The translations under genes and the position numbers were made by a program. Positions 8,549 through 48,257 of a stretch of DNA of 48,257 nucleotides are shown piece by piece (within the stretch, counting starts at the first letter, position 1; every line of letters begins with the position of its first letter). Source of the DNA: Fimbriiglobus sp. (GTDB taxonomy: Bacteria; Planctomycetota; Planctomycetia; Gemmatales; Gemmataceae); the NCBI GenBank assembly GCA_031414395.1, contig JANNVG010000850.1, forward strand, positions 1 to 48,257, read 5' to 3'. Under the pieces are notes generated by a model. The model was not told the DNA's origin. It was given only the letters and a program-made list of their open reading frames with translations, and did not search any database.

Positions 8549-8554
8549 GGCCGG

Positions 8555-8878: not shown

Positions 8879-8911
8879 GGGCTGGTCCTTGGGGTGACTG
8901 GTTGGGGGGGG

Positions 8912-9385: not shown

Positions 9386-9422
9386 GTTCCCCTCGTTGGG
9401 CGTGGACGTGACGGAAACCGAA

Positions 9423-9446
9423 CGGGGCCGGAACCCGAAGGCCCCG
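9423..9446 (-). terminator. Stem-loop after the major capsid gene (possible attenuator/terminator)
   Basis: CGGGGCC-N10-GGCCCCG, followed on the minus strand by UUCGGUUUCC. It lies 26 nt after the capsid stop. Confidence 0.35.
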
Positions 9447-9471
9447 ACCCCGATAGGCGCATCGCCAGGAA

Positions 9472-10494: not shown

Positions 10495-10559
10495 TCGATT
10501 CCCTTTCGTTGATCAGAACTGTGGTGGTCGAGCCGAGGGCGCGGGCCGGCTGGGTGGGG

Positions 10560-11282: not shown

Positions 11283-11294
11283 GTGATGCGTCTC

Positions 11295-11993: not shown

Positions 11994-12120
11994 CAACTGG
12001 GCCTCCACAAGGGGCTGTCTCCCCGCTTGACGGCTACGGGTCGCCGCCCCCGGCGGGCGTGCCGGGGTTGTGCGCTCACATTGCGGGGCGCACGATTCGG
12101 GGTGGGGGATGCAGTCCCTG

Positions 12121-14004: not shown

Positions 14005-14050
14005 GATCTGACCATGGGCGGATCGGGCGCGTGGGGTCGGGATGCAGGGT

Positions 14051-20301: not shown

Positions 20302-20615
20302 GCCGGTTCGCTTCTTTCAGTTGGTCGGTCGGCCCGGCGGGATATGCCGAGCCGGGTGTAGCGGCGGCGACGGATGGAGGTCCGACCGGGCTCGGTGGTC
20401 CCGCCCCAGGTGCCGGCCTCGTGGTTATCGAGGGCGTGGTTGAGGCATTCGCTACGGACCGGGCATGCGGCGCACAGTGCGGCGGCCGTCGGGTCGATCT
20501 CGTTCGGTTCGCGGGGGAAGAAGATCTTGGTGCGGTACCCGTGACAGGCCGCCTGGTCCCACCAGTCGACGTCGACTGCGCTCATGGTGTCGTGGGCGTG
20601 TTGCCGGGACATCAC
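20298..20615 (-). CDS. whiB: WhiB-family transcription factor
   Basis: Track ORF with C-X21-CAACPVRSEC and GTWGG. Confidence 0.8.
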   Translation of the reverse strand: MMSRQHAHDTMSAVDVDWWDQAACHGYRTKIFFPREPNEIDPTAAALCAACPVRSECLNHALDNHEAGTWGGTTEPGRTSIRRRRYTRLGISRRADRPTERSEPA

Positions 20616-22021
20616 GCCGTCTCCATCGCTTCACGAACCCGGCCAACAATCCATTCCATGACCGGTGGGGTCACCGCGTTGCCAGCGAGCTTGATCTGAT
20701 CCTTTTTTGTGAGGGTGCGGGGGATGTAGCCGGGTGGGAATGCCATGGCGGCGGCGCACTCGTACGGTTCGAGCATGCGAAACCCGCAGTCGGCGACGGC
20801 TTGGGCGGTGTCGATGTAGGCGAACCGGTCGCGGGTCGGGATGGTCGGTACGGGCCGGTCGGTGGGCTGTGGGATCGACGTCCCGTAGTACGGCACAAGT
20901 AGGGACTGGTGACCGGAAGCGGTGAGGGTTCGTGCGGGTTCGGTGGCCGGAGTGACCATCTCGGGTCCGCCGCTGTTGTTCCGCATGAGGAGCCCGTGGT
21001 GGGTTCCGCCCGCGGTCAGCGTGTGGGCGGGCTTGGAGGTCGGGTAGGCGTGACCGTTGCGGCGGAGGGGCACCATCATCGCTGGCGGTGTCGCGAGGGC
21101 GTGGGTCGATGTGGTTTGCTGAACGGCGACGGGTGCGGTCAGTGGGCGGGCCCGGTTGCCGGGCGTCGTTTCGTAGGTGTTCCCCGCCCCGGCGGTGATG
21201 ATGGGGAGCCAGCCGTACCGCTCTAGCCCGGCGAGGATTCGGGCGTTCGTCGCGGGGGCGAGGGGTTTGGTTCGGTCACCGATCCGGGGGCAGGGCAGCG
21301 ACCAGTCAAGAATGTCGTTCGCGGGGCGGGTGGCGGGTTCGCCGCGGGTGCCGCACTGGGCGCATGACCACAGCCACTGTTGATCGTACCGGCCGACTGT
21401 TCGGCCGTTCTTCCATGTTTGGCGCATGATGCTGTCACGGTCACATCGTGGGCATCGGGCGGTGCGTTCCATGTCGAGGTTGATGGTGAGGCCGTTGCGC
21501 CAGAACACGATGTAGATCCGGTCACGGGATTGGGGCACGCCGTGGTGCATTGAGTTCGTCGAGATCACCCGATGCTGATAACCAAGGTCGGCCATCGCTA
21601 CATGCCAGCCGCGCCACCCCACCCACTTCGTGGCCTCGACCACGTTCTCGACAACGATCACGTCGTAGCGGAGTTGTTCGGCGAACCGGACCACATCCCA
21701 CATCGTCGCCCTCGACCGTTCCGCGGCGGGGTCGGGTGCGTCCCACAGTGATGGGTCTTGCTGTTTCCGGGACACCCCGCGGGCCTGCGAGTGGTTTGTG
21801 CATTCGGGGGATGCGAGAAGGATGTTTGTGCGCGGGTAGCGGCGAGGGTCGGCTTGGGAGATGTCGGCGCAGTCATGGCCGGCGGCGGGGAAGTGTGCCT
21901 GGTGGACGTCGACGGCGGTCTGCCAATGGTTCGCGGCCATTACCAGTTCGACGCCCGCGGTTTTCGCGCCGAGCGATGATCCGCCGGCCCCGCAGAATAG
22001 GTCGGTTGCGGTGAGGCTCAC
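20612..22021 (-). CDS. DNA (cytosine-5)-methyltransferase, orphan
   Basis: Motif I DLFCGAGG, catalytic SPEC(T), and ENV (VVENV). No cognate endonuclease gene nearby. Confidence 0.85.
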   Translation of the reverse strand: MSLTATDLFCGAGGSSLGAKTAGVELVMAANHWQTAVDVHQAHFPAAGHDCADISQADPRRYPRTNILLASPECTNHSQARGVSRKQQDPSLWDAPDPAAERSRATMWDVVRFAEQLRYDVIVVENVVEATKWVGWRGWHVAMADLGYQHRVISTNSMHHGVPQSRDRIYIVFWRNGLTINLDMERTARCPRCDRDSIMRQTWKNGRTVGRYDQQWLWSCAQCGTRGEPATRPANDILDWSLPCPRIGDRTKPLAPATNARILAGLERYGWLPIITAGAGNTYETTPGNRARPLTAPVAVQQTTSTHALATPPAMMVPLRRNGHAYPTSKPAHTLTAGGTHHGLLMRNNSGGPEMVTPATEPARTLTASGHQSLLVPYYGTSIPQPTDRPVPTIPTRDRFAYIDTAQAVADCGFRMLEPYECAAAMAFPPGYIPRTLTKKDQIKLAGNAVTPPVMEWIVGRVREAMETA

Positions 22022-29882: not shown

Positions 29883-30400
29883 GACGCCATCTCGGCGTGC
29901 GCACGATCGCACCGGTCGGCTTCCGATGTGTCGGCCGGTCGGGGGCAGATCACATGGTGGACGTAATCGTGCGGGTACCAGACGTAATGGTCATGGCCGG
30001 AGATCAGGATCAGCGTCCCCTCCCATCCGGTGCCGAGACCGTCGACCGTGGTCCGATCGAGGAGCCGGTCACCCATCCGGAGCTGGTGGGAGCGGACCTG
30101 TTCAAGTCGGGCCGGTCGGGGGCGGGCGGGTTGGGTGCGGCCCAACGAGAACCCGGCCCATTCTTCGGGGGTGTACGCGTCAAGCGGGTACACGGTGAGG
30201 CGGGACCCGTTGTCTTCGAGGGTGCACCCTTCCCGGCCCCGGAACAGCGGCGGGCGGTTAGCGGTGCCCAGGTCGGCGATGATGGTCTTCGCGGCGGCCT
30301 CGTATTCTTCGGGGGTCCAGTCGGTGTCGGTGGGGACCGGGACATCGACGTCGATTGTGACGATGAGGGGGACGGTGGTGTACCCGTCGAGGTCGGTCAT
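29879..30400 (-). CDS. Hypothetical protein (173 aa)
   Basis: Track ORF 29879..30586 trimmed to ATG 30400 (MTDLDGYTTVPL...), ATGA overlap. The removed N-terminus is an out-of-frame reading of the pentapeptide repeats. Confidence 0.55.
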   Translation of the reverse strand: MTDLDGYTTVPLIVTIDVDVPVPTDTDWTPEEYEAAAKTIIADLGTANRPPLFRGREGCTLEDNGSRLTVYPLDAYTPEEWAGFSLGRTQPARPRPARLEQVRSHQLRMGDRLLDRTTVDGLGTGWEGTLILISGHDHYVWYPHDYVHHVICPRPADTSEADRCDRAHAEMAS

Positions 30401-31014
30401 GATTCCGCCTTTGGGGTCCGTTGGATGGTTCCGGTGTCGGTGATGGTCCACCCGGCGGGGATGGTGACCGTGCGGCGCGCTCTGGTGCCCACCGGACCCA
30501 GATTGGCGCCCCCGAGATCGGCGTCCCTGAGATTGGCGCACGTGAGATTGGCGCACGTGAGATCGGCGCCCCCGAGATCGGCGCACGTGAGATCGGCGCC
30601 CCCGAGATCGGCGCCCCTGAGATTGGCGCCTGCTCGGATCGCGGCGAGCAAGGTGCGCGGCTCGGCCAACCCGGCCAACAGTCGCAACGTCGCGGGCATC
30701 GACACCGGGGCGTAACTACCCGCGAAGATGGCTTTCGCTAGATCTGGGGACAGTCCGAGAGCGACCGCCCCGGCACCCTCCCAGTCCAGTTCCCCGTCGA
30801 TCAGTTCGGAGGGTGACAACCGGACCGCCCACCCCGCGACACACGCCGTGGTACCGCATTCCGGGCCGCGTCCAACCTGACCGGTAGGTGATTCGGGGGT
30901 GTCGTCGGAGGTGTCGGCCCATGTTTGTTGGTCCCACCGTTCGGGGTGCGCTTCGATCAGGTCGGCGACGGCTAACAGCCGTTCGCTGGTGGTCATGTTC
31001 AGGTCGGTGTTCAT
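30397..31014 (-). CDS. Pentapeptide-repeat protein with N-terminal globular domain
   Basis: aa 129-172 read ANLRGADLGGADLTCADLGGADLTCANLTCANLRDADLGGANL, i.e. A(D/N)LXX repeats. First gene after the cro-xis unit. Confidence 0.8.
   Translation of the reverse strand: MNTDLNMTTSERLLAVADLIEAHPERWDQQTWADTSDDTPESPTGQVGRGPECGTTACVAGWAVRLSPSELIDGELDWEGAGAVALGLSPDLAKAIFAGSYAPVSMPATLRLLAGLAEPRTLLAAIRAGANLRGADLGGADLTCADLGGADLTCANLTCANLRDADLGGANLGPVGTRARRTVTIPAGWTITDTGTIQRTPKAES
30499..30630. repeat. Tandem ~15-bp repeats (GAGATYGGCGCNCNY) encoding the pentapeptide repeats
   Basis: Read directly; about nine consecutive units. Confidence 0.8.
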
Positions 31015-31574: not shown

Positions 31575-31777
31575 CACGCCACCGCCGCTACGGGTTCGGG
31601 GGTCGAGGACATGACCACACTTTAACCAGTAGTTACCGATAGAGCAAGTTTTTGATCTGGTTTTATCGAAACCTACCTGTGACCTGCGAAACGACAGGCG
31701 TGAAACTAGAACTTCAACCGTGGAATATCGGCCTCGACTGGTGGCTATCGGTAGGTATCTGTGCGACTCTGAAAGAC
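31575..31777. promoter_or_regulatory. Divergent immunity-switch intergenic region with repeated TATCGR/YCGATA half-sites
   Basis: Low-GC 203-bp gap. TACCGATAG (31634-42) is the reverse complement of CTATCGGTA (31745-53). Extra TATCGA (31664-69) and TATCGG (31726-31) sites are present. Confidence 0.55.
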
Positions 31778-32152
31778 ATGGCAACCCGGAACATGCAGGA
31801 AGTCGGCGAGCTGATCCGCGAACGACGAGAGTCGCTCAACATCCGCCAGGACGACTTCCCCGACGTCAGCTCGGCCACCATCGGCAAGGCGGAACGTGGC
31901 GTCGCTCTCCCCGCCCGCGGCCTGACTGTCGCTGCACTCTGCCGGGGCCTTCGGTGGAGACCAGATGCACTTGACCTTCTCGCCGAAGGAGCAGACCCCC
32001 CCACCGTCGAGCTGGAGAGCCAGCCGGACCCGGATACTCCCGCTCCGATGATGCTCGCCGCCCTCAACCGAAAACTCTCCGAAGCAACACCCGACGAACT
32101 CGCCCGCCTAGAGGCCTACCTCGACGGCCTCATGTCCAACCGCGACAAATGA
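31778..32152 (+). CDS. XRE-family HTH repressor (candidate prophage immunity repressor)
   Basis: Track ORF 31652..32152 trimmed to ATG 31778. ELIRERRESLNIRQDDF...SSATIGKAERG. Co-oriented with ImmA and int. Confidence 0.7.
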   Translation: MATRNMQEVGELIRERRESLNIRQDDFPDVSSATIGKAERGVALPARGLTVAALCRGLRWRPDALDLLAEGADPPTVELESQPDPDTPAPMMLAALNRKLSEATPDELARLEAYLDGLMSNRDK

Positions 32153-32604
32153 CACCCATGTTGTACGTCACACCCCCCACGTACCGTCACACCATGCCCA
32201 CCACATGGAACCCCTGGCGTGCCCTACGCGACCGAGACCATCTCACCTTCGCGTACTCGCGCCACGCCCAAATCGGCGGCGGCGCCATCTACGCCCGCCG
32301 CGGCACCCACGCCGCGATCATCATCGACCCCGACATGCCACGATCCGAACGCAACGCCGCCCTCGCCCACGAACTCATCCACGACGAACGCGGCGGACTC
32401 CCAACCGGCGCACCCGACTGGATCGTCACCAAAGAAGAACACGCCGTCGACCTCGAAGTCGTCGCCCGCCTCGTCCCCGCCACCGAACTGCGCCGATTCC
32501 TCGAACAGCGGGCCACCGTCGGCACAGTGACCGTGCACGACGTCGCCGAAGAATTCGACGTCCCCACCGAGATTGCCAGCTCAGCCATGAGGAGCACCCG
32601 ATGA
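32149..32604 (+). CDS. immA: ImmA/IrrE-family zinc metallopeptidase
   Basis: HEXXH (AHELIHDE) in a ~150-aa protein, ATGA-coupled to the XRE repressor. Confidence 0.75.
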   Translation: MTPMLYVTPPTYRHTMPTTWNPWRALRDRDHLTFAYSRHAQIGGGAIYARRGTHAAIIIDPDMPRSERNAALAHELIHDERGGLPTGAPDWIVTKEEHAVDLEVVARLVPATELRRFLEQRATVGTVTVHDVAEEFDVPTEIASSAMRSTR

Positions 32605-32900: not shown

Positions 32901-33033
32901 CACGAGCGAAGCGCGTTCCCTGCCCCTCAGAAAACCATCCTTCTGCCACCCCTTCCCCCTGAGATAGCCCGGATAGCTTCCATCCACCGAACCGAACGCC
33001 CGCAATACCAGGCTATCCGCGACCAGGACTGCC

Positions 33034-33074
33034 CTCCTAAAGAGGATACGCAGGTTCGATTCCTGTCGGGGGCA
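33034..33074 (+). other. attP core candidate: 3' part of a tRNA (anticodon loop CUCCUAA to acceptor end; Arg-CCU-like)
   Basis: CTCCTAA-AGAGG-ATAC-GCAGG-TTCGATT-CCTGT-CGGGGGC-A read directly. No matching 5' acceptor or D-arm upstream. It lies 100 nt before int. Confidence 0.55.
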
Positions 33075-33173
33075 CTATAAAACACCAGGTCACAGGCCAT
33101 TTCCTGCCCACTTACCGACCACCCGAAAAAGGTTACCAACCCGCTTTCCATCCCTTTGAGCCATACTGGACCA

Positions 33174-34358
33174 ATGGCAGGCAACGTGAGGTACCGCTCA
33201 GGGGCGTGGCGCATCCAGGTCTACGCCGGCACCGACCCGATCACCGGCCGCAAAAAACGCGTCGCCCGCACCGTCCACGCACCCAACAACCGCGCCGGAC
33301 GCAAACTCGCCGACGAAGCACTCGCCACCCTCCTCCTTGAAGTAGCAGCTCGAGGAACGGCGATCGCGGACGACATAACCGTCGCCGAACTCCTACAACG
33401 ATGGATCGCATCACGCACCGCCGACTGGGCCCCCTCCACCGTCCGCGGCCACCGCCAAATCGTCGACACATGGATCACACCCCGCATCGGCCACCGGCGA
33501 CTCCGCAAACTCCGCGCGGTCGACATCGACGCCATGTACGCCGACCTCCGAGCCCACGGCGGCCGCAACCGCACCCCGCTCTCCGCCGGGACCGTCCGAC
33601 GCATACACACCGTCCTGCACTCCGCGTGCAACCAAGCGGTCCGCTGGGGCCTCATCACCACCAACCCCGCCACCATCGCCAACAAACCGACCGTCGAACC
33701 CCACAACATCAGCCCTCCCAACCCCACCGACGTCGCGAGGGCCATCACCGAAGCCGACCCCGACTTCGCCCTCTGGGTCCGGGTCTCAGCGACGACCGGC
33801 GCCCGCCGCGGCCAGATCGCCGCTTTGCGTTGGGACGATCTCGATCTCGACGCCGGCACCATCACGTTCGCCCGGGCGATCTCGATTGGTACCGGGGAGC
33901 TCGTCGAGAAAGGGACCAAGACCGGTCGGATCTACACGGTGTCCGTCGACCCGGGCACCATCGCTCTCCTCGCGACGCGCCGGGCCGACTGGTACCGCCA
34001 GGTCCTCGCCGAACCATCACTCCCCAAAAACGGGTTCGTGTTCGCTAGACCCGACGGCCGGTGCTGGCACCCCACCTCCGCCTCCCACGCCTGGCGCACC
34101 CTCCGAGACACCGTCGGCCTCCCGAACGTCCGCCTCCACGACCTCCGCCACCATGTTGCGACCGAAATGCTCGCCGCCGGCGCCGACGTTCGCACCGTCG
34201 CCCACCACCTCGGCCACGCCAACCCGTCGACCACCCTCAACGTGTACGCGGCGTTCGTGCCCGCACTCGACCGGGCCGCGTCCGACGGTCTCGGGGCCCG
34301 GCTCGATCAGGCGATGCCAACGGTCAGCGAGCCGACGGAACTCGCACAGGAGCAGTAA
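33174..34358 (+). CDS. int: Tyrosine integrase
   Basis: Track ORF 33156..34358 (TTG), here started at ATG 33174. The C-terminal catalytic region reads RLHDLRHHVATEMLAAGADVRTVAHHLGHANPSTTLNVYA. Confidence 0.9.
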   Translation: MAGNVRYRSGAWRIQVYAGTDPITGRKKRVARTVHAPNNRAGRKLADEALATLLLEVAARGTAIADDITVAELLQRWIASRTADWAPSTVRGHRQIVDTWITPRIGHRRLRKLRAVDIDAMYADLRAHGGRNRTPLSAGTVRRIHTVLHSACNQAVRWGLITTNPATIANKPTVEPHNISPPNPTDVARAITEADPDFALWVRVSATTGARRGQIAALRWDDLDLDAGTITFARAISIGTGELVEKGTKTGRIYTVSVDPGTIALLATRRADWYRQVLAEPSLPKNGFVFARPDGRCWHPTSASHAWRTLRDTVGLPNVRLHDLRHHVATEMLAAGADVRTVAHHLGHANPSTTLNVYAAFVPALDRAASDGLGARLDQAMPTVSEPTELAQEQ

Positions 34359-34626: not shown

Positions 34627-35085
34627 ATGGCGGCGAGCGATGGTCAAGACCGATCGATTGAGGCCCAGGCGGCCATCTACAGCTACGGCAACGTCCAACG
34701 ACTGATAACCGTAAGCGGGCGCCTTGGGGCCATCCTGTTTTCGATGGGTCCGCTGTGGATCATGTATCTGATGGTCGATGCCATTGCTGGCAAGAACACG
34801 AACTTCAACGCGTCGGTCACAATCGCGGTCACCCTCATATCCACGGTCACAATGAGCGGGGGCGCTGCAACCATCTATACCCAGCGAAAGACTGTCCTAC
34901 GGCTCAGAGCTCGCGAACAGGACCTTGAAGAACTTGTCAAGTCCAGTGGACACAAGCTCGATCTCCAAGAACTGGATTTGAAAGAGAAGGCTTTGGAAAT
35001 GCGCCAACTCAACCGGCAGCTCCTTGATACTGAAGCTCGATTGACGGAGGTGACCAGAAAACTAGGCAATGATGGTGGACACTGA
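34627..35085 (+). CDS. Membrane protein (2 TM) with C-terminal coiled coil
   Basis: Track ORF with hydrophobic segments GAILFSMGPLWIMYLMVDAIAG and VTIAVTLISTVTMSGGAATIY, then a heptad-like Leu/Glu-rich tail. Markedly lower G+C than the backbone. Confidence 0.65.
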   Translation: MAASDGQDRSIEAQAAIYSYGNVQRLITVSGRLGAILFSMGPLWIMYLMVDAIAGKNTNFNASVTIAVTLISTVTMSGGAATIYTQRKTVLRLRAREQDLEELVKSSGHKLDLQELDLKEKALEMRQLNRQLLDTEARLTEVTRKLGNDGGH

Positions 35086-35133
35086 AGTCGTTTCTGGCAC
35101 ACTACCCACCCAAGGTGAACAGGAATTACAGAC

Positions 35134-35733
35134 ATGGAATTTGTCTCGCTTCTCCTCCTAGGCTCACTCTCAGCTGTCGCTGTCGCGTTTGTTCTTATCC
35201 CGCGGTGGTGCCTCCGGAGCATCTCTCGGCATAAGTTGTGGGAAATTCGTGACGGGGTAGTTGACGCCATCTTCCACGGCGACCTGCCATCAAATGAGAT
35301 TACCTGGGGCCTCGTTTCCAAAGCCGAATCGGCTATCCGTTTGACCCCCGACTTGACGATGGGCACAATCGTCGCGTGCGAGTGGACACAACGCACAGTA
35401 TCGAACGCGGTGCGCAAAGAATTGGGTTGGGACATCAAACGCCGCCCCGAAAGCGGACTATCCGCCGATCACCTCATCGTCTACCGGAAATTCGAGCGGT
35501 CACTCGAGTACGTCCTTAGCCGCCAGGCGCTTTGGGGCTCCTGGCCAAGCCTCATCGTATTCGGTCTCCTTCTGGTGAAGTCACTAATTGAGTCGATCGG
35601 CAAACGAAGCAACGATAATTTCAAGGCCGTTGTAACCAATCAAACGAATCCCCGTTGGGTCCGACAGGCTTCGTCCTACGCCGAATCGGCATCCCCTCGA
35701 CAGTACCGGCCCCTTAAGGAACTCGTCAGCTGA
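35134..35733 (+). CDS. Membrane protein (N-terminal and internal TM), unknown function
   Basis: Track ORF of 199 aa with FVSLLLLGSLSAVAVAFVLI and WPSLIVFGLLLVKSLI. G+C roughly mid-50s % by eye. Confidence 0.65.
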   Translation: MEFVSLLLLGSLSAVAVAFVLIPRWCLRSISRHKLWEIRDGVVDAIFHGDLPSNEITWGLVSKAESAIRLTPDLTMGTIVACEWTQRTVSNAVRKELGWDIKRRPESGLSADHLIVYRKFERSLEYVLSRQALWGSWPSLIVFGLLLVKSLIESIGKRSNDNFKAVVTNQTNPRWVRQASSYAESASPRQYRPLKELVS

Positions 35734-35902
35734 CCTGCTGAGTGTCGGAGGCTACCGGGACTCGGGGACCTCGATCGCTCTTGCGGTCCTGACCTTCCTT
35801 CTGGGCGGGGTTATCGGGGTCGCTCTCACCCGAAACTCCGACATCACAGTTCCGTTCGTTGCGACGACAACGGTACCGCCGGTTCACACGATCACGGGAA
35901 CG

Positions 35903-36220
35903 ATGCGCCTAACGGATTCAGACCTGGGTGGCGGCACCGTTTCTTGTTATGGGACCGGTGGTTTCAGCGACATGAAGCCCGGCGCCCAGGTGGTTGTTAA
36001 GGACGCGGCCGGGAAGATCATCGCTCAGGGTGCGCTCGGCGACGGGGTGCACCCGACAAGCGAGAAGTACGCGGGTGTCGTATGTGAGTTTCCGCTCACG
36101 GTCGAGAACGTGCCCGACTCAGATTTCTATCAGGTGTCCGTCGGGCATCGTGGCGAGATCAGTCACACTCGAGCGGAGATGGAGCAGTCGGGTTGGACCG
36201 TCGGGTTCACACTCGGGTGA
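35903..36220 (+). CDS. Small beta-rich domain protein; coding probably extends upstream (TM segment without start codon)
   Basis: Track ORF of 105 aa. The same frame is open from 35636 and encodes ...GYRDSGTSIALAVLTFLLGGVIGVALTRNS... with coding-like GC3, but there is no ATG/GTG/TTG. Confidence 0.55.
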   Translation: MRLTDSDLGGGTVSCYGTGGFSDMKPGAQVVVKDAAGKIIAQGALGDGVHPTSEKYAGVVCEFPLTVENVPDSDFYQVSVGHRGEISHTRAEMEQSGWTVGFTLG

Positions 36221-36230
36221 GCCTGCACGC

Positions 36231-36264
36231 GACGAAGAGCCCCACCGAAGCGGGGCTCTTCGTC
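36231..36264. terminator. Bidirectional hairpin terminator between convergent genes
   Basis: Perfect 13-bp stem GACGAAGAGCCCC / GGGGCTCTTCGTC with an 8-nt loop. It lies 11 nt after the 36220 stop and 18 nt from the 36282 stop. Confidence 0.7.
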
Positions 36265-36281: not shown

Positions 36282-36605
36282 CTACACGGTAGCGGCGGCC
36301 TCGATGCGTTCCGGATCCACACCGAGCGCCTGAGCGGCGTCCTCGGCGGTGAACCCGTCGACCTTCTTCACAACCGCTGCCGCCAACCGTTCGATGTCGG
36401 TGGGCGGGTCGGGTAACGGGCCCTCATCCGGTACGGGTACCGGGACCTGTATCGGGGTCGCCGTTCCCGGGTTACCGTCGACATACATGGTTTCTGTCGC
36501 GGTGCCGTCTCCCTTATCGTCGACGGTGCGAACAATGATGCCGGGGACCGTGGCGCCTGTTTCGGGGTCGACGGTCGGCGGGCCAACAAACGTAGTGGTG
36601 GGCAT
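36282..36605 (-). CDS. Hypothetical protein (107 aa), last gene of the fibre block
   Basis: Track ORF 36282..36686 trimmed to ATG 36605 (MPTTTFVGPPTVDPETG...). Confidence 0.55.
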   Translation of the reverse strand: MPTTTFVGPPTVDPETGATVPGIIVRTVDDKGDGTATETMYVDGNPGTATPIQVPVPVPDEGPLPDPPTDIERLAAAVVKKVDGFTAEDAAQALGVDPERIEAAATV

Positions 36606-36613
36606 CGGGTCTC

Positions 36614-37870
36614 CTACAGGGTTTCGGTGGACATCCACGCCATATTCATGGACCGCACTACGGCGTCGATTGACCACACCCCGCAACAGGTCGCCATCGC
36701 GGTGGCGGTGTCGGGCAGGGTGCCGGTCGCGGACCCGGACGCGGTGGTCGCCGCGGTCAGATCATCGATCCGCCAGTACACCGTCGAGTCGTTCGGTTTG
36801 CATTCGATGTGGAAGTCGTAGACGTGTTGCGCGGTGAACGGCATCCCGGTATCACCGACAGTACGGCCGCCGCCGGAGCTGGTGACGAATTGCCAGTTGG
36901 TGTCCGTCGCCGCCCCGTTGACGTGTTCCCTCGCGAACATGGCGTTTTGGGCTGCGGTGGTCCCGTAGTCGGTACCCATCCATGTCGCGAACACCGCCGA
37001 CCCGAGACCGATGTGGATGCGGGACCCGGTCGACGCCCCCGTGTTGTTGTACGACGCGTCGGGGAAGTAGTGGCGGGAGTGATACTCGAACCCGCCGTGC
37101 AGTTGGGTGGATGACGCCCCGCGCAGGAACACGGATGTGCCGACGTACCCGGACCCGGCCCCGGCCCCGCCCGACGATGGGAACGTGGTCATATACCCGT
37201 CCGCGGTCGCGGCGTGGGTCGGGGTGCCGGTGATGGTCCCGGAACCACCGACTCCCGCCTGGCGCAACGCGGCCGCCGATTGCGGGGTGATCACCTGCAT
37301 TTGCCGCGACCAGTCAGCGCGCCCCAGCGGGTGATAGCGACCGTAATCGGGGCGGAACCACGGGCGGACCGCCTTCGCGAGTTTCCGCCAGGTGTACTGT
37401 CCGAATCCGGCGACCGCGGCGGGGTCCGTTGATTGGGCGGCCCCGGTGAACACCCCGGTACCGTCGGTGTCGGAGATCGCGACGCCGGTCACGGCCAGAT
37501 CCCCGGTCATCGTGTCGCCCTCCGGGGACAGGCCCTGGCGGATCACCAGCCAGGTGTTCGTTGCCGTTTTCTCCAGGACGATGCTGTCGTATTGGCGGAC
37601 GGTGAGCTTCCCGTTGATTGTCGGGGGGGCCGCTCCGGCGATGGTGAGGAGTCCGGCGCCGAGGTTCTCCACCTTGATCTGGGTGCCCACCGGAAACGCG
37701 ACGGAGGCGTTCGTCGGCACGGTCAGGGTGACCGCTGTGCCCTTGGTCATTGTCACGGTCTTACCGGCGTCGAGCAGGACGAGGGTGTAGTTGTTGACCT
37801 GAGCGGTCAGGGTGCGCTGTTTGCGCGGTTCGGCGTAGTCCTGCAATGCGATTTGGGTGGCGGTGGTCAT
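36614..37870 (-). CDS. Minor tail / receptor-binding-like protein
   Basis: 418-aa track ORF, Gly/Thr/Ala-rich and beta-type in composition. Called by position in the fibre block. Confidence 0.5.
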   Translation of the reverse strand: MTTATQIALQDYAEPRKQRTLTAQVNNYTLVLLDAGKTVTMTKGTAVTLTVPTNASVAFPVGTQIKVENLGAGLLTIAGAAPPTINGKLTVRQYDSIVLEKTATNTWLVIRQGLSPEGDTMTGDLAVTGVAISDTDGTGVFTGAAQSTDPAAVAGFGQYTWRKLAKAVRPWFRPDYGRYHPLGRADWSRQMQVITPQSAAALRQAGVGGSGTITGTPTHAATADGYMTTFPSSGGAGAGSGYVGTSVFLRGASSTQLHGGFEYHSRHYFPDASYNNTGASTGSRIHIGLGSAVFATWMGTDYGTTAAQNAMFAREHVNGAATDTNWQFVTSSGGGRTVGDTGMPFTAQHVYDFHIECKPNDSTVYWRIDDLTAATTASGSATGTLPDTATAMATCCGVWSIDAVVRSMNMAWMSTETL

Positions 37871-37880
37871 GTTGTCAGCC

Positions 37881-39362
37881 TCATTCGAAGTAGCCGTCGA
37901 TGGTGCACGCCGTACGGATCACCTGCGAGCCGGTCGCCGCGGACGCTCCGATAACGCGGGCGAAGACGTGCACATACCGCCCGGCGGGAACAAACCAGGG
38001 GGTGCCGGGCCGCAAATCAATAGGTGGGGTGGTCGGCGCGGCACCGATAGCGGCCGCGTTGGCGATCGTTTCGAAACCGAGAGCGAGCCGGGCGCCGGGG
38101 TAGGTGCCTGCGGTCGCGAGCGACAGGGCTGACAGTCCGAGGGACAAACCCCATTCGATGGTGTAGATCGCGGCGCCGTTCGCGGCGCCCATGTTCACCG
38201 ATTGGAGATGGATGCCGGTGAGCATGAAGTTGTACGGGACCGGGATCTGGTAGTCGAAGATGATGAGGTCGAGCGTGTCGGACGCACCAAACGAGTTGGC
38301 GCCGTTGGACCAGGAGCAGATACCGCCGAGTCCGACTTCGCCGGCGGCGGTGGTGTTGGTGGGGGTGCGGGCGGTGGGGGCGGCGTTGTTCGCGAACGCG
38401 GTCAGTGTCGTGAACGCGGTGGGGCTGCGGAGCGCAGACATTTCGGTGGCGGCCTGGATGTGCGACCACGGCTTACCGGCATTGGTGTCGAGCTGGTAGA
38501 CGGCGGATTCGGCGGCGAGGATCTGCACCGCGGTGCCGGCACCCGCCGAGTTGTAGGTGCGGGTGTACGCGTTGAAATGGGTGCAGGTCCAGTCGCCGGT
38601 CCCGACCGGGAAATCAATTCGCTGCTCCGACACCAGCACCCCGGCGGTGGTCACGATCCGGAACGAGGCGCCCATCTCGTCAAGCTCAACCTCGAAGATC
38701 GCGTAGTCGGTCGCGGCGACCGCGGCAACGAACGTCGCGTTACTGATCGCGGTGCCGACGGTGAGAGCCCCGTTGATGAACAGCGACGGGATGTACTGGC
38801 CGGTGCCGTCTTTCTGCCAAACCGCCCCCGACGCCAACTGAACTTGCAGAGTCGTGGTCGCGGACGGGGCGGCGATGTTGAGAAGGCCCAGTTCGATGAG
38901 GTTGTTGTTGAAGTGGGCGGTGTGCCGTTGCCGGGACCGCCACAACACCCGTCCGCGCGATGGCAGGACAAACGATCGTTGGGACATTTGGGCGGCGCCG
39001 ACCGTCGTCGCGACCGACGAACCGGCGTTGTAGGTCGTGACCCCGGTCGCCTGGGTGATCGTCATCGTGGTCGTGGTCTGTACCTGAAGGTTGGTGTTCA
39101 CCGCGGCGCCTTCGACGGTATCGGACCACAACAGTGTTGGGCTGCCGTCGGCGAGCGACCCGTCCGACATGGCCCGGACAGCGCGACCGATCTTGTAATC
39201 GGCCCCCAGGATGGGGAGACCCTGGATAGTGGCGGGGACGATCGCCGCCTTGTCGACCTTGAGAGCGTCAGCGGCATTGGAGTCGCGCAGACGGCTGTAG
39301 GCGGCTTTGCCGGTGTCAACGGTGAGCTGGTCCGAACCAGCCCCGGATTTGATGATGGTCAT
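37881..39362 (-). CDS. Minor tail protein (493 aa)
   Basis: Track ORF, ATGA-coupled to the collagen-like fibre gene. Confidence 0.5.
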   Translation of the reverse strand: MTIIKSGAGSDQLTVDTGKAAYSRLRDSNAADALKVDKAAIVPATIQGLPILGADYKIGRAVRAMSDGSLADGSPTLLWSDTVEGAAVNTNLQVQTTTTMTITQATGVTTYNAGSSVATTVGAAQMSQRSFVLPSRGRVLWRSRQRHTAHFNNNLIELGLLNIAAPSATTTLQVQLASGAVWQKDGTGQYIPSLFINGALTVGTAISNATFVAAVAATDYAIFEVELDEMGASFRIVTTAGVLVSEQRIDFPVGTGDWTCTHFNAYTRTYNSAGAGTAVQILAAESAVYQLDTNAGKPWSHIQAATEMSALRSPTAFTTLTAFANNAAPTARTPTNTTAAGEVGLGGICSWSNGANSFGASDTLDLIIFDYQIPVPYNFMLTGIHLQSVNMGAANGAAIYTIEWGLSLGLSALSLATAGTYPGARLALGFETIANAAAIGAAPTTPPIDLRPGTPWFVPAGRYVHVFARVIGASAATGSQVIRTACTIDGYFE

Positions 39363-40837
39363 GCTGTCGCGCTCCTCAAATAGTTGATCGTGTACGTGCC
39401 ATGGGCGCCACCGGACAGGTTGGTGACGATCAAATCAAACGACGTTGCTACGACAATGGTGCCGATAGCGACGGTGAACTGTTCCGCTTCCATTTCATCG
39501 GCGTCCCGGCCGTCCGCCGGGGCGGCGACCATCGCGGTGATAATCGAATCTGCGGCAACCGCGGCGTCTGAAACGGTGACGGTGACGGTTTCGACGTAGG
39601 TGACCGCACCGAAGTCGGCGACGGCGGTACCGTGCCCGGTACGGCCCGCCAACACGTCGAGGGCCGCTTCAACGTCCGTGGAAGACAGTCCGACACCGCC
39701 GGCATAGGAGATCGCGGACGCGGCTAGCGATGACAGTGTCGCTAGTGTCCCGAGGCCGAGAGTTGCCCTCGCTGTCGCGGCGTCGGCGGCGTCGAGCAGC
39801 GTCCGCATGAACGTCGTCAGCGTTGTGACGGCGGCTGTTCCAGACCCGGTGAAATATGGGAGATTGTCGGCTGCGGAGGTCAATCCGGCGATGGCGTCGA
39901 GGTCGGCGTCCCACGCTTGGACGTTCGTGCCGATCACAGCACCCGCCAACACACGCAACGCCGCGGCGTCAGCGGCCGTCAACAACGACCGGCCGAACGA
40001 TGTAGTTGATAGTGCTGCGATGGCTGTCAGATCGGCGTCGACCTGCTGGAAGTCTGTCGACGCCGACAGGGCCGCCGTACCCAGCCCGAGGGCGGTGCGG
40101 GCAGCCGCCGCGTCAGCGAGCACGAGGAACGCCCGACCATACGATGTCGTAGACAGGGCAGCGATAGCGGTCAGGTCAGAGTCCAGGGGTTGTGACGCGG
40201 CGATAGCGGCAGACACCGAAGCTGCATCGCCAGCAATGCGAGCAGCCTGCTCGTCGGAGATCTCGGTTTGGATCGTCGCAAACGACGAGGCGAACGCAGC
40301 CGTATAGGCGGCAGCAACAGAGACAACCGGAGCCGACGATGTGCCAGAGACCGTGATCGTCCCGTCACCATTCGTGACCGTGTCAACCCGCCCCTTCTCC
40401 GCGTCCAACTCCGCGAGAGAAGTCTGAACGTTCGTCGACGCCAAGTTGCCGGCAGGGACAGTCGAGATCGCCGACGCATCATGAGCGTCAACGGTGTCCG
40501 CGAGATGATCGGAGATCGCCGTCGCGTTAGCGGCGTCCGCGGCGTCACGCGCCGCCGTATACGCCGTCGAGACTCTAACGGTCGGGTTTGCCGGGTCCGC
40601 CGAGTTGACCGTGACCGTCGCATCAGCCGCGACGATCGACGCCATGATCCCGTCGACACCGTCAACCCCATCGATTCCGTCCGCACCATCAACACCATCG
40701 ACTCCGTCAGTGCCCGCCGCTCCCGCCGTGCCCGCCGGACCAACAATCCCCACAACATCCAACGTGACCGACTCAACCGCCACGTTCAACGCGACCGCCT
40801 CCGCTGGGGTCAGATCAAGAGTGACCGACTCAGGCAT
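39359..40837 (-). CDS. Tail fibre protein with collagen-like Gly-X-Y tract and internal sequence repeats
   Basis: GPAGTAGAAGTDGVDGVDGADGIDGVDGVDG (aa 33-63). D(A/S)DLTAIAALSTTS(Y/F)GR occurs twice, with a third degenerate copy, each followed by DAAxAR..LGLG. Confidence 0.75.
   Translation of the reverse strand: MPESVTLDLTPAEAVALNVAVESVTLDVVGIVGPAGTAGAAGTDGVDGVDGADGIDGVDGVDGIMASIVAADATVTVNSADPANPTVRVSTAYTAARDAADAANATAISDHLADTVDAHDASAISTVPAGNLASTNVQTSLAELDAEKGRVDTVTNGDGTITVSGTSSAPVVSVAAAYTAAFASSFATIQTEISDEQAARIAGDAASVSAAIAASQPLDSDLTAIAALSTTSYGRAFLVLADAAAARTALGLGTAALSASTDFQQVDADLTAIAALSTTSFGRSLLTAADAAALRVLAGAVIGTNVQAWDADLDAIAGLTSAADNLPYFTGSGTAAVTTLTTFMRTLLDAADAATARATLGLGTLATLSSLAASAISYAGGVGLSSTDVEAALDVLAGRTGHGTAVADFGAVTYVETVTVTVSDAAVAADSIITAMVAAPADGRDADEMEAEQFTVAIGTIVVATSFDLIVTNLSGGAHGTYTINYLRSATA
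40649..40741 (-). repeat. Collagen-like (Gly-X-Y)10 coding tract
   Basis: Derived from the protein coordinates of 39359..40837. Confidence 0.75.
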
Positions 40838-42070: not shown

Positions 42071-42264
42071 GACGCCGGACCCGACTTCGTGGACACGAGC
42101 ACCGCGGCCAACGCACCCAACGCCGTTGTGGTCGGAGACGACACCAACGCGATAAGCGCCGCGTCCGTCCCCGTCCCGGCCAGCCACACAATCCCCGCCA
42201 ACCCCGCCAAGGTCACGACGGCCAGCGCGGCGACCACCATTCGCACCGTCGACACGTCGGTCAC
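42067..42264 (-). CDS. Holin-like membrane protein (2 TM)
   Basis: Track ORF of 65 aa with two hydrophobic segments. It directly follows the endolysin, and its GTG start overlaps the endolysin stop. Confidence 0.55.
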   Translation of the reverse strand: MTDVSTVRMVVAALAVVTLAGLAGIVWLAGTGTDAALIALVSSPTTTALGALAAVLVSTKSGPAS

Positions 42265-43106
42265 AGCGCCGCCTTGATCGCCGCGACGACCTGCGCCGGC
42301 AACGCTCTAATCGCCGCCGAGATCGCCGCCGCATCCCCCACCGTCGCCCCCGCCGGAGACGCGAGGATCGCCGCGATACCAAGCGCATCGCCGTGCAACT
42401 GCAAGTTTGCGACCGTGTTGTCGTTGTACGCGTTGTTGTCGTTCTTCACGAGCTCGTCATGGATGACGGCTCGCAGGGTTTTTTCGTCCATGTCAAAATC
42501 CTCCGGTAGGGGTGCGCCGCCCGCGGCGGCGATGATGGCGTCGATAAGCATTCGGTCCAGGTCGCGGCGGCGGGGGTGCAACGCCCACGCATCCGACCGG
42601 TCCCCCGGCTGCACGGTCCCGTGATGGACCAGACCAACAATCCGCCCACCCGAATCGCGCACCTGATCATGCGTCAACCACCGTGCCGACTTGATGGGGT
42701 CGAGACCTTGCCGAACCCAGAAAGCGCAGATCGCCGCGCCCATACGGCCGATGATGGCCTTGGTCCATTCGGCGTCGGGGTCCCACTCCGCCGACCGGCA
42801 CGCCGCGCTGATACCCCACCCCGGCCCGTTCAGGTTGTACGCGGCGGTATGCCACGTCATCAGCCCATCCGGGGCCATATCGACCGTCGAATCGGTATCG
42901 ACGAGAACGTGATAGCCACCCGGATCGCCTCGGGTGGCGATGTAATGGGCGACGTTCTCCGCTCCGGTATCCGGGGCGATCCGATCGAGGGCGCCCTCCG
43001 CTGTGTGGACGGTCACCAGACCGGTCGGCTTATCCCACCCCCACGCGGTGCGCGGGCGGGTCTGCGGGTAGGACACGTTCGGATGGTCGAGCAGCCAGTA
43101 GCTCAT
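42261..43106 (-). CDS. Endolysin, N-acetylmuramoyl-L-alanine amidase (Amidase_2/PGRP-like)
   Basis: Track ORF 42261..43247 trimmed to ATG 43106 (MSYWLLDHPN...). VTVHTAEG...HYIATRGDPGGYHVLVD...WHT...HHGTVQPGDRSD. Confidence 0.75.
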   Translation of the reverse strand: MSYWLLDHPNVSYPQTRPRTAWGWDKPTGLVTVHTAEGALDRIAPDTGAENVAHYIATRGDPGGYHVLVDTDSTVDMAPDGLMTWHTAAYNLNGPGWGISAACRSAEWDPDAEWTKAIIGRMGAAICAFWVRQGLDPIKSARWLTHDQVRDSGGRIVGLVHHGTVQPGDRSDAWALHPRRRDLDRMLIDAIIAAAGGAPLPEDFDMDEKTLRAVIHDELVKNDNNAYNDNTVANLQLHGDALGIAAILASPAGATVGDAAAISAAIRALPAQVVAAIKAAL

Positions 43107-43222
43107 CCGGTCACCACCGCAACAAACGCGAACGCGACCAAACACACCAAAGCTCCGACGGTCAACCACCAGAAAATTCGGGCGTGATAACGGGGCGCGG
43201 CCATGGGTACGATCGTGCCCAT
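43103..43222 (-). CDS. Small membrane protein (39 aa) upstream of the endolysin
   Basis: Hand-translated: MGTIVPMAAPRYHARIFWWLTVGALVCLVAFAFVAVVTG. ATGA overlap with the lysin start. No clear RBS. Confidence 0.4.
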   Translation of the reverse strand: MGTIVPMAAPRYHARIFWWLTVGALVCLVAFAFVAVVTG

Positions 43223-43246
43223 GACCAACCGACCGGCAAGGATGCA

Positions 43247-43486
43247 ATGAGACTCTACGCGCCGACCACCCCGACGATCAGCACCGCCGATCTGGCCATG
43301 ATCGAAACGGAACTCGCCGCCGAACTCGGACCGATCCGCGCCCACCACGTCGTCGCAACCGTCGACACCGGTGAACTGGTCGTGACCGTAACCACCGGCG
43401 ACCGGGACCATCGGGGGGTGTGTCGGCTGGTGGAAGCGCTTCTCTACGGCATGAACCCGACAGTGGTCATCGTCGCCGCGTCCTAA
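43247..43486 (+). CDS. Reverse-oriented hypothetical protein (79 aa) between the tail and lysis genes
   Basis: Track ORF 43184..43486 trimmed to ATG 43247 (AAGGA RBS 5 nt upstream). High GC3 and balanced composition. Confidence 0.5.
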   Translation: MRLYAPTTPTISTADLAMIETELAAELGPIRAHHVVATVDTGELVVTVTTGDRDHRGVCRLVEALLYGMNPTVVIVAAS

Positions 43487-46602: not shown

Positions 46603-48257
46603 AGGTGTGTCGCTCCCATCGCGGCTTTGCGTTGCGCGTAGATGATGTCGGACACGGTCCGATCATCCGTCGACCCGATGTTGAACGTCTGATGTTGCGT
46701 GACCTTCTTCGAATGGTCGTTGATCTGCGGGCCGCCCCCCGACCCGTCAGCGAGCTGGTATCCGAACCGGTGCGCGGTCGCGGCGAGGATTCTCGTGGAC
46801 CGGGCCCGTTTCGATGGGGCGTGCGGGATGTATGACTCGCCGCCCGTTTCCGGTTCGGCCCACACCCGCATGTCACCGGCCCGGGCGATCTGAGCGACGT
46901 GATGCTCTCCGCCGTTGCCGTAAGTGATGATGTTCCCATCAGCGTTCGGCAAGACACCGCCGAATGAGTCGACGATATCCTGCGCCCAGTTATGCCACGG
47001 CTTACTCAGGTCGGCGTGCGCACCAACGTCGACCATCGAGTTCCGGGTTTGAGCCCCGGCCGCTTGCGCCGTCGCTACCTGAACACTGACCGGGATGACC
47101 GCCCCCTGTCTCACCAAATCCAACTGCCGTTGAATATCAGCGATCTCCGTTGACGCCTGAGCAGCACCAGTGACCGCCACCTGAGTGAACGCCGTGTCGG
47201 GAATCTCATCAAGTATCGAGATGTACCCGCGGGCCTGTTCCTCCGTGATGTAGTACTGCTTCGAGATATCCATGAACGATCGGGACAACTCCTCCTTTTT
47301 CGCTTTGATCGCCTCCGGGGTGGCACCCTTTTTCACGAACGCGGCGAGTTCCGTCTGCACGTCCTTCGCCATCCCCTGCAGATGAGCGCGCAGCGCGATT
47401 GATTCGTCGGACCCGCCGGTGAGGTCGCCCTTCGCCGCGGTCAGCACTTCGCCGAGATGGTTCAGTTTTCCCTGGTACGCGTCGGCCGCATTACCCGCAT
47501 CAAACTTTTGGGAGAACAACTCGTCGAGGAGGTCTTTGAACGCCCCGAACTTGTCTTTCACGGACATGGTCTTGTCGCCCAACCCGTCAAGAGACAGGCC
47601 CAACTCCTGCGACGCGGGGGTGCCGAACCCCATGGTGTGGAACGCCACCGTGAAGGCCGGGACGGTATCGGTCAACGCCCCGGTCAGATCGACCCCCAGT
47701 TTCGACGCGAGGTCGTCGACTTCGGTTTGGCTGAGACCCAACGAGTGTTGCAGCAGAACGTTCGCTTCCCGCCAGTTGTTCGTGGGCGTCTTCATATCGT
47801 CCAGGACCTTCGCCAACTTCGTAGCGGAGCCCTGAGCATTCGCGATCTCGTGTGAAAACCCGGGCAGGTTCTGGCCGAACTCCTTGAAGAACCCGCCGAC
47901 ACCGTCGCCCTCCGCCCCTATCTTCTTCAGGTTTTCCATCTCGACGTTCAACTTGTTGAACTGGTCGGCCTGCTCCGCGTACGACGCCGGCGCCTTCCAT
48001 CCCTTCGTGAACGTCTTGTACGCCTCCTCCGACGCCTCCTGAATCGAGCCCCACAAGAGCGCCCCCGCGACCAAACCCGGTCCGGCGACCATCAGGGCGT
48101 TCGTCGCGAACGAGATCCCTTTCCCCGCCGCGACCCCCCCGGACCCCATGTCCGCCAACGTCGTCATCATCGTCTGATACTTCGGGACGACCGTCGCCAC
48201 GGCACCCCCCGCCGTCAACACCGCTCCGGCGATCCCCAAAAACCCGGTCGTGACCTG
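46599..48257 (-). CDS. Tape measure protein, C-terminal part (48139..48257 duplicates 1..119)
   Basis: Track ORF 46599..48239. The frame remains open to the window edge and is in phase with 1..1283. Confidence 0.85.
   Translation of the reverse strand, partial: QVTTGFLGIAGAVLTAGGAVATVVPKYQTMMTTLADMGSGGVAAGKGISFATNALMVAGPGLVAGALLWGSIQEASEEAYKTFTKGWKAPASYAEQADQFNKLNVEMENLKKIGAEGDGVGGFFKEFGQNLPGFSHEIANAQGSATKLAKVLDDMKTPTNNWREANVLLQHSLGLSQTEVDDLASKLGVDLTGALTDTVPAFTVAFHTMGFGTPASQELGLSLDGLGDKTMSVKDKFGAFKDLLDELFSQKFDAGNAADAYQGKLNHLGEVLTAAKGDLTGGSDESIALRAHLQGMAKDVQTELAAFVKKGATPEAIKAKKEELSRSFMDISKQYYITEEQARGYISILDEIPDTAFTQVAVTGAAQASTEIADIQRQLDLVRQGAVIPVSVQVATAQAAGAQTRNSMVDVGAHADLSKPWHNWAQDIVDSFGGVLPNADGNIITYGNGGEHHVAQIARAGDMRVWAEPETGGESYIPHAPSKRARSTRILAATAHRFGYQLADGSGGGPQINDHSKKVTQHQTFNIGSTDDRTVSDIIYAQRKAAMGATHL
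48139..48257. repeat. Terminal overlap copy 2
   Basis: Identical to 1..119. Confidence 0.9.

Follow-up and report, generated by a model that had tools for sequence, protein, structure and literature searches.

The 48,257-nt stretch of contig JANNVG010000850.1 that we analyzed, referred to here as the window, carries three open reading frames (ORFs) on the plus strand between a tyrosine integrase gene (int) and the end of a converging block of virion genes (Table 1). We find that this segment is accessory cargo made up of two independent modules. ORF1 and ORF2 make up a genuine two-gene module that is mobile and encodes predicted membrane proteins, and ORF3 belongs to a separate family that, judged from its members' sequences, consists of exported β-sandwich domains anchored on the outer face of the membrane through a helix or a lipid. 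Both modules are predicted to lie in or on the cytoplasmic membrane and recur in temperate phages of high-G+C hosts, often on the integrase or immunity side of the genome. An earlier sequence-only reading of the window had correctly placed the three ORFs downstream of int, co-oriented with int and with the helix-turn-helix (HTH)/Peptidase_M78 operon, but had described them as a single cassette, whereas they comprise a conserved pair and an unrelated, independently distributed gene. The window itself has an exact 119-bp direct repeat at its ends (1–119 and 48139–48257), an assembly overlap indicating that it is a complete circular or circularly permuted temperate phage genome of ∼48.1 kb.

The case for ORF1–ORF2 as a unit comes from eight independent contexts, the window included, that were chosen for DNA availability only and that span phages, prophage remnants and a single chromosomal island. 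A gene for an ORF1-like two-helix protein lies directly upstream of an ORF2-like gene in all eight, at a spacing of −4 to +48 bp, and the pair is 4–11 G+C points below its flanks in seven of them; together, these observations indicate a mobile two-gene module. In an Actinomycetota metagenome-assembled genome (L012), an integrase gene is followed by the pair, here with a 4-bp overlap, which converges on a tape-measure gene and occupies the slot that it has in the window. The pair ends the tail genes of 39–41 kb phage contigs (L042/43) at a distance of 1.6 kb from an integrase gene. In L046, it converges on a capsid gene and a serine-recombinase fragment is close by, and in L044/45 it belongs to an element that also carries genes for a D5-type primase and an Xis-type HTH_17 protein. 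In L039 (L039/40), its neighbors are a tape-measure-type gene (PhageMin_Tail) and a HEPN gene, and in L037 it lies between ORFs that are WhiB-like and Xis-like by sequence appearance only. The remaining context (L038) is an islet of a few kilobases (7553–13979) between prmA and phoH–ybeY–era on a 2.8-Mb actinobacterial chromosome, where the pair is accompanied by a truncated GDSL-lipase gene, two XRE regulators, an IS1595 transposase and a FitA/PIN toxin–antitoxin pair. Pattern-based locus searches with the ORF2 family returned one locus in genome contigs (L012), one in metagenome contigs (L037) and none in IMG/VR. As a separate observation, a 135-amino acid (aa) Ion_trans_2 (K+-channel-like) gene adjoins the L042 integrase gene (13916–14323, minus strand) and is another small membrane-channel gene in a lysogeny region.

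The base composition of the window changes within the segment. At 57.2% G+C versus 65.3% for the whole window, positions 34627–36220 are the lowest region of equal size, ∼4 standard deviations (SD) below equal-sized windows elsewhere (mean 65.6%, SD 2.1, minimum 59.2%). The drop noted in the sequence-only reading is limited to ORF1 (54.5%, third-position GC3 0.63) and ORF2 (56.0%, GC3 0.65), with ORF3 at 61.5%, and a 150-bp G+C profile steps from 51–53% to 62–64% at ∼35700. The recent acquisition proposed on these grounds can consequently apply to ORF1–ORF2 and not to ORF3, and the low G+C of the pair in seven of its eight hosts fits chronically mobile cargo as well as it fits a recent event. 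No flanking repeats were found around ORF1–ORF2 other than chance 9–10-mers.

ORF2 has, as had been stated, two hydrophobic segments, a strong one at residues 4–22 and a moderate one at 138–156 by hydropathy. A word-indexed search of 5.8 billion proteins gave self-matches only for ORF1 and for ORF2. When 1.84 billion cluster representatives were scanned in full with HMMER, we identified 154 ORF2 relatives at E ≤ 1e-3 (best E 1e-12, 25–35% identity, all ∼200 aa and colinear), a family of at least 154 clusters at 50% identity. Common to its members are an N-terminal transmembrane helix, a helical domain and another hydrophobic helix that starts with GSW.G, together with the motif PRW..RS..RHRLWRLRD...D..G.LP..HPAV; ORF2 ends in a variable tail. 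In alignment A2, D40 is invariant, and P23, W36, R39, L51, P52, G135, W137 and G139 are present in ≥90% of sequences. An AlphaFold2 model of ORF2 built from a 50-sequence alignment is all-α with a predicted local distance difference test (pLDDT) score of 85.6; a Foldseek comparison of this model with the PDB gave no significant neighbor and a PDB profile search with A2 gave nothing below E 0.6. Scans of the ORF1 family and of 50 ORF2-family members against Pfam, PHROG and PADLOC yielded no consistent assignment. The PADLOC profile '1TM-TIR' (PDLC02977) weakly matches 8 of the 50 ORF2-family members (best E 1.5e-4), but not ORF2 of the window; two of these matches, viewed in detail, have E-values of 0.003 and 0.029, one of them spanning profile positions 26–138 of 186, and a literature search on '1TM-TIR' found nothing. 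The all-α model contradicts a TIR fold, and on this ground we rejected a TIR assignment for ORF2.

ORF1 has two hydrophobic segments (∼33–53 and 62–83 by hydropathy), which agrees with the two transmembrane segments of its earlier description. The coiled coil of that description is judged by composition only and corresponds to a Leu/Glu/Lys/Gln-rich C-terminal extension of ∼50 aa that is specific to this copy and absent from the seven other family members. Family members are 81–159 aa long and combine two transmembrane helices with a tail that is basic and charged. Its conserved features are A-G-x-x-T in the short inter-helix loop and a basic R..R...E segment past the second helix, which ORF1 also carries, and A54, G55, T58, R94 and E101 are invariant in an eight-member alignment (A5). 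ORF1 shares 33% identity with the upstream gene of the L012 pair (tblastn E 1e-6). Weak Pfam and PADLOC matches of ORF1 to Cas6 (E 3e-4 to 3e-3) span the transmembrane and coiled region, occur in one of the eight family members and were rejected as spurious. Gasdermin and KxDL matches in the family-library scans fell below cut-offs, and the best hits of a PDB profile search with A5 (E ∼0.006, IgA heavy-chain constant regions) are chance short-motif matches.

ORF3 had been read as a small β-rich protein. It is predicted to form a β-sandwich, but the 105-aa form is N-terminally truncated rather than free-standing. The frame upstream of the ATG at 35903 is open to ∼35636 (stop at ∼35633) and encodes a strong transmembrane helix (IALAVLTFLLGGVIGVALT, 35771–35830) homologous to the anchors of its relatives. 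Translation, homologues, alignment A1 and the structural model support an extent of 161 codons, which includes the transmembrane anchor, a linker and a ∼110-aa β-sandwich with two invariant Cys residues. The AlphaFold2 model of this form has a pLDDT of 82 overall and >90 across residues 50–161. Foldseek found no significant PDB match, the best being pilin, adhesin, S-layer, TIE and macroglobulin-type Ig-like folds at E 0.06–0.4, and a PDB profile search with A1 gave nothing below E 0.6.

The start of ORF3 is unusual. The annotated ATG corresponds to a Met inside the domain's conserved first strand (HTITGT-M-RLTDSD), and a product that began there would therefore be missing half a strand as well as the anchor. 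No ATG, GTG or TTG occurs in frame from the ∼35633 stop to this ATG, and the start options that include the helix are confined to CTG codons at 35735 and 35738, 2–5 nt after the ORF2 stop (35731–35733). The same sequence is present in contigs from two other runs (L001 and L002), so the missing start is not a one-off assembly error. ORF3 could initiate at one of these CTG codons through reinitiation after the ORF2 stop, or it may be a 5′-truncated remnant produced by insertion of ORF1–ORF2; the frame is intact for 161 codons and keeps all family-invariant residues. Because the G+C step coincides with the ORF2/ORF3 junction and an intact ORF3 relative lies directly after int in L003, the data suggest that the ORF1–ORF2 module inserted between int and an older ORF3-like gene. 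We also considered an ORF2–ORF3 fusion via a +1 frameshift at CCC-CTT-AAG-G and judged it unlikely because, if the second ORF2 helix spans the membrane, the β domain would be cytoplasmic, unlike that of the exported relatives.

Nine database homologues of ORF3 share 36–59% identity over up to 92% of the extended form, and each of the nine has either a transmembrane anchor, which in some follows a zinc ribbon, or a lipoprotein signal whose lipobox reads ..GCG/ACG. Alignment A1 contains 18 invariant columns, including C71 and C117, with the motifs HTITG...GHRG...W..GFTLG; the domain is probably disulfide-bonded. A pattern scan of IMG/VR located ORF3 relatives in 24 viral contigs, all of 63–71% G+C, and none of these 24 contigs carries ORF1 or ORF2. 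We surveyed neighbors within 2.2 kb at 25 loci (the 24 IMG/VR loci plus L003 and L009, with one near-duplicate dropped), where the commonest Pfam families are Phage_integrase (six genes), HTH_31 (six) and HTH_3 (five). An ORF3-like gene directly follows int in L003 and L023. In at least a dozen loci, no further gene stands between it and a converging block, whereas in L009 it lies among tail and HNH genes. The gene is beside Rce1-like and Trypco2 genes in L004. In L005 (578–2064) and L006 (913–2399), the gene for an ORF3-family lipoprotein shares 4 bp with the end of a gene for a 339-aa RAMA-domain protein, an overlap that suggests the two are linked in an operon; the surroundings are not obviously those of a phage.

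Among viral predicted structures (BFVD), ORF3 has a single strong match, a 'Lipoprotein' of Gordonia phage Nyceirae (E 9e-8, probability 1.00). This protein is gp39 (UniProt A0A1C9EI20; KX557282, 30587–31045, minus strand), and its alignment to the ORF3 family profile by hhalign (probability 94%, E 1.5e-7) places both Cys residues in register. Nyceirae gp39 is encoded in the immunity region, co-directional with the repressor (gene 36) and integrase (gene 34). It is a remote homologue of ORF3 and resembles it in its two Cys residues, β-sandwich and N-terminal export or anchoring. It differs in having a lipoprotein signal (LLVTSCGGGG), whereas ORF3 of the window lacks a canonical start and is anchored by a transmembrane helix; identity between the two is just 17–19%, and gp39 is itself uncharacterized.

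The segment closes with a perfect 13-bp G+C-rich hairpin that had been called a strong terminator. Its stability is confirmed on the plus strand (ΔG −31.7 kcal/mol, z −5.9) and is greater on the minus strand (ΔG −44 kcal/mol, z −7.3), where it has a 21-bp stem and a UUCG loop; none of 200 shuffles was as stable. There is no U-tract on either strand and the flanking genes, ORF3 (plus) and 36282–36686 (minus), are convergent, so that if the hairpin terminates transcription it is probably a tail-less or bidirectional terminator. Its higher minus-strand stability means that it may chiefly terminate the converging late operon. A scan from int to 36231 found no other hairpin, and int and ORF1–3 could therefore form a single transcription unit. 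A tRNA 3′-half-like element, probably the attP core, lies 80 bp upstream of int within a 256-bp gap. Rfam matches it to tRNA only weakly (18.6 bits, E 3.9) and ARAGORN found no complete tRNA, but the canonical T-loop GGTTCGATTCC can be read directly. Since this putative attP is upstream of int, int and ORF1–3 would remain adjacent at one end of the prophage.

No family was found for ORF1–3 in Pfam, PHROG or NCBIfam, the weak Cas6 match of ORF1 aside. In tblastn searches of 50,697 isolated-phage records (E ≤ 0.01), there was no match for ORF1, ORF2 or ORF3, nor for P0009 or the ORF2-like protein of L037, and megablast of the region against isolated phages was also negative. The three genes are therefore not core lytic functions. 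This result and the deviant composition bear out their assignment by the sequence-only reading to non-core cargo in a lysogeny-side slot, and its failure to recognize a described defense family is likewise matched by the defense models, which gave nothing apart from the weak Cas6 and '1TM-TIR' hits. The int-proximal slot is occupied in other, independent phages either by the ORF1–ORF2 pair (L012) or by an ORF3 relative (L003, L013, L023 and others). As judged by these comparisons, the families appear new to Pfam, PHROGs, PADLOC 2.0, NCBIfam and the limited literature searched. The kind of locus is already known: int-proximal moron cargo encoding membrane proteins that are candidate prophage defenses.

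Lysogenically expressed membrane-protein defenses have been described from the int/repressor region of actinophages (PMC6426606, PMC7542560). They include mycobacteriophage Charlie gp32, which excludes DNA injection (PMC6426606), and the RexAB-like pairs gp43/44 of Gordonia phage CarolAnn, gp30/31 of mycobacteriophage Sbash and Butters gp30/31, which are expressed in lysogens from the same region (PMC6426606, PMC7542560). Like these pairs and λ RexA/RexB, ORF1–ORF2 consists of adjacent, co-inherited genes in the int/repressor region of temperate phages, with at least one small multi-pass membrane partner and a proposed action at the membrane after phage attack (PMC6426606, PMC7542560). The layout is different, however. 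RexAB-type pairs combine a cytoplasmic partner of ∼370 aa that has a weak DUF4747 match with a partner of four transmembrane helices, whereas ORF1 and ORF2 are both small and membrane-anchored with two hydrophobic helices each. Pfam detected no DUF4747 in ORF1, ORF2 or the 50 ORF2-family members, hydropathy and the models gave no four-transmembrane-helix partner in the pair, and tblastn with ORF1 and ORF2 found no match in the isolated-phage collection, which is expected to include CarolAnn, Sbash and Butters. The resemblance to RexAB-like pairs is therefore one of kind and not of family.

Single superinfection-exclusion (Sie) proteins such as Charlie gp32 are small, membrane-associated and encoded beside int or the repressor gene, and they act from the prophage to block DNA entry of other phages (PMC6426606); the position and predicted location of ORF1–3 are in line with this. 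ORF1–3 follow int directly on the lysogenic strand, in a slot that is also used in L012 and L003. ORF1–ORF2 differs from the Sie proteins in being an obligate pair rather than a single gene, and in the tblastn searches of isolated phages none of ORF1–3 showed similarity to a characterized Sie protein. Lactococcal Sie2009 is a membrane superinfection-exclusion protein of a lysogeny module, and the small lipoproteins Llp of T5, Cor of φ80/N15 and Ltp of Streptococcus thermophilus phage TP-J34 are tethered at the outer face of the membrane and block the receptor or DNA injection. A tethered-blocker model for ORF3 is drawn by analogy to the latter group; ORF3 has no significant structural or sequence match in the PDB.

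We favor, at a little under an even chance, a reading in which ORF1–ORF2 and ORF3 are expressed from the prophage and act at the level of the envelope against superinfecting phages; it draws on position, membrane location and analogy. Both modules would be transcribed from the prophage, with or alongside an int transcript ending at the 36231–36264 hairpin. ORF1 and ORF2 would act as a complex of integral membrane proteins, the former a hairpin of two transmembrane helices with an outward-facing AGxxT loop and a basic cytoplasmic tail, and the latter anchored through its N-terminus, its conserved helical domain lying in the cytoplasm and a further hydrophobic helix completing it. The cytoplasmic domain of ORF2 would sense or gate, and the helix hairpin and outward loop of ORF1 would perturb the membrane or block DNA translocation, making the two a membrane-embedded exclusion or abortive-infection pair. 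ORF3 would be a binder tethered outside the cytoplasm, where it would mask a receptor or hinder injection. It is possible, if doubtful, that ORF1–ORF2 is the founding case of an undescribed anti-phage system of two small membrane-embedded proteins, spread by temperate phages and other mobile elements of high-G+C Actinomycetota and set apart from RexAB-type pairs by the lack of a cytoplasmic sensor, and that ORF3 and gp39 represent a second, independent exclusion family at the envelope.

Several observations weigh against this reading. None of ORF1–3 is homologous to an experimentally characterized defense or exclusion protein, and PADLOC matches in the ORF2 family are confined to the weak '1TM-TIR' hits, for which the model contradicts a TIR fold. 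A sigma-70 scan found no promoter upstream of ORF1, and the L042 pair is co-oriented with the late tail genes and directly follows them, an arrangement that fits late expression better than lysogenic expression. ORF3 has no canonical start in the window and is possibly non-functional. The association of its family with integrase genes is a modest enrichment, 6 of 25 loci within 2.2 kb as compared to ∼3 by chance on a rough estimate. Finally, L001 and L002 are 100% identical to the window and offer no polymorphism by which selection could be gauged.

The position and composition evidence fits any moron rather than a defense specifically, and the genes could also be cargo for lysogenic conversion or host physiology unconnected with phage defense, with the pair altering the envelope (transport, stress tolerance or signaling) and ORF3 acting as a surface or adhesion factor of benefit to the lysogen. 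The best, non-significant PDB folds of ORF3 (pilin, adhesin and S-layer Ig-like) are in keeping with this idea, as are ORF3 relatives outside recognizable phage contexts (L004, L005/6). However, the pair occurs almost solely in phage-derived or mobile contexts and not in conserved chromosomal neighborhoods, no transporter, enzyme or signaling domain was detected, and the actinophage genes tested from such a slot are mostly defenses (PMC6426606, PMC7542560). We regard conversion cargo as unlikely, although a serious contender. Very improbable, in our view, is a lysis-timing module for the phage's own lytic cycle, with a class II holin-like ORF1 and ORF2 as its regulator or antiholin. The small size, two transmembrane helices and charged C-terminus of the ORF1 family (81–159 aa) do match holin architecture, but these traits are generic and not specific, and the placement of the L042 pair after late genes on the same strand has to be set against the window, where the Amidase_2 lysin gene is on the opposite strand ∼6.5 kb away and has its own downstream small genes. 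In addition, the pair is found in lysin-free contexts, namely the L038 islet, which has no virion genes, and the primase/Xis element L044; it has no Pfam holin match and no counterpart in the 50,697 isolated phages.

A last alternative denies the two modules any joint function: ORF1–ORF2 would be a selfish, toxin–antitoxin-like addiction pair that stabilizes its carrier element, and ORF3 a decaying, 5′-truncated pseudogene. Strict co-inheritance of two closely set or overlapping genes (−4 to +48 bp), persistently low G+C, and the diversity of the mobile elements involved, including the L038 islet where the pair is near FitA/PIN and an insertion sequence element, are what an addiction pair would show. 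The absence of a canonical start for the anchored form of ORF3, the ATG within its conserved first strand, and the G+C step at the ORF2/ORF3 junction, as if the pair had inserted into the 5′ end of an L003-type gene, are all consistent with a pseudogene. On the other hand, the 161-codon frame is intact with its family-invariant residues retained, no flanking repeats or scars mark an insertion, and addiction and abortive infection are not mutually exclusive roles. We consider this alternative decidedly unlikely.

Prophage defenses shape the range of phages that can infect Actinobacteria, including Mycobacterium and Gordonia hosts, a matter of concern to phage therapy and biotechnology. To our knowledge, only a handful of actinobacterial prophage defense systems have been characterized. 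The analysis turns orphans of a word-indexed search into two defined families, a paired membrane module and an exported β-sandwich recurrent in lysogeny modules. If either is protective, it would provide a new type of envelope-level immunity and a profile with which to search genomes; if neither is, the region is ordinary moron cargo.

Table 1. Features of the window discussed in the text (aa, amino acids)
Feature	Position	Strand	Remarks
TerL	14051–15535	−	
XRE-type HTH protein	31652–32152	+	
ImmA/IrrE-like Peptidase_M78	32149–32604	+	
Zinc-ribbon and transmembrane protein, 100 aa	32598–32900	+	
Putative attP core	33031–33075	+	tRNA 3′-half-like GCAGGTTCGATTCCTGTCGGGGGCA, T-arm and acceptor 3′ strand
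Tyrosine integrase (int)	33156–34358	+	Pfam Phage_integrase 2e-19, Phage_int_SAM_3; phrog_1 3.8e-66
ORF1, 152 aa	34627–35085	+	downstream of int
ORF2, 199 aa	35134–35733	+	
ORF3, homology-supported extent, 161 codons	35735–36220	+	translation, homologues, alignment A1, model
ORF3 as annotated, 105 aa	35903–36220	+	
Perfect 13-bp G+C-rich hairpin	36231–36264		GACGAAGAGCCCC / 8-nt loop / GGGGCTCTTCGTC
Tail-like genes	36282–40837	−	
Amidase_2 lysin	42261–43247	−	

A short plus-strand block of lysogeny functions runs from the HTH gene through int to ORF1–3; nearly all virion, lysis and replication genes are on the minus strand. The host is probably a high-G+C actinobacterium. TerL has ≤37% identity to that of any isolated phage, and the IMG/VR relatives of int and the adjacent tail protein are distant only. 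The large tail-like genes encode proteins of 418, 493 and 492 aa, of which the first has a C-terminal minor-tail match in PHROG and the third a collagen-like repeat, and they lie downstream of the lysin gene and not upstream, an unusual order shared by Gordonia phage Nyceirae, in which minor tail genes 29–31 come after lysin A.

The gene that closes the HTH/Peptidase_M78 operon, directly before the putative attP, encodes a 100-aa protein that has a zinc ribbon (CPWC...CPAC) at its N-terminus, followed by a single strong transmembrane helix and a short tail that contains Cys. This N-terminal architecture is common to the ORF3 relatives P0005 and P0006, matches to SLATT_fungal are weak and sub-threshold, and the protein is a further candidate for a lysogen-expressed membrane protein. 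In the early/replication region, a C-5 cytosine DNA methyltransferase gene (20612–22021, minus strand; Pfam DNA_methylase, 7e-31) could be the phage's own anti-restriction function. Just past the divergent early region, a 205-aa ORF (30397–31014, minus strand) has a run of pentapeptide-like repeats (ANLRGADLGGADLTCADLGGADLTCANLTCANLRDADLGGANL) as its C-terminal half.

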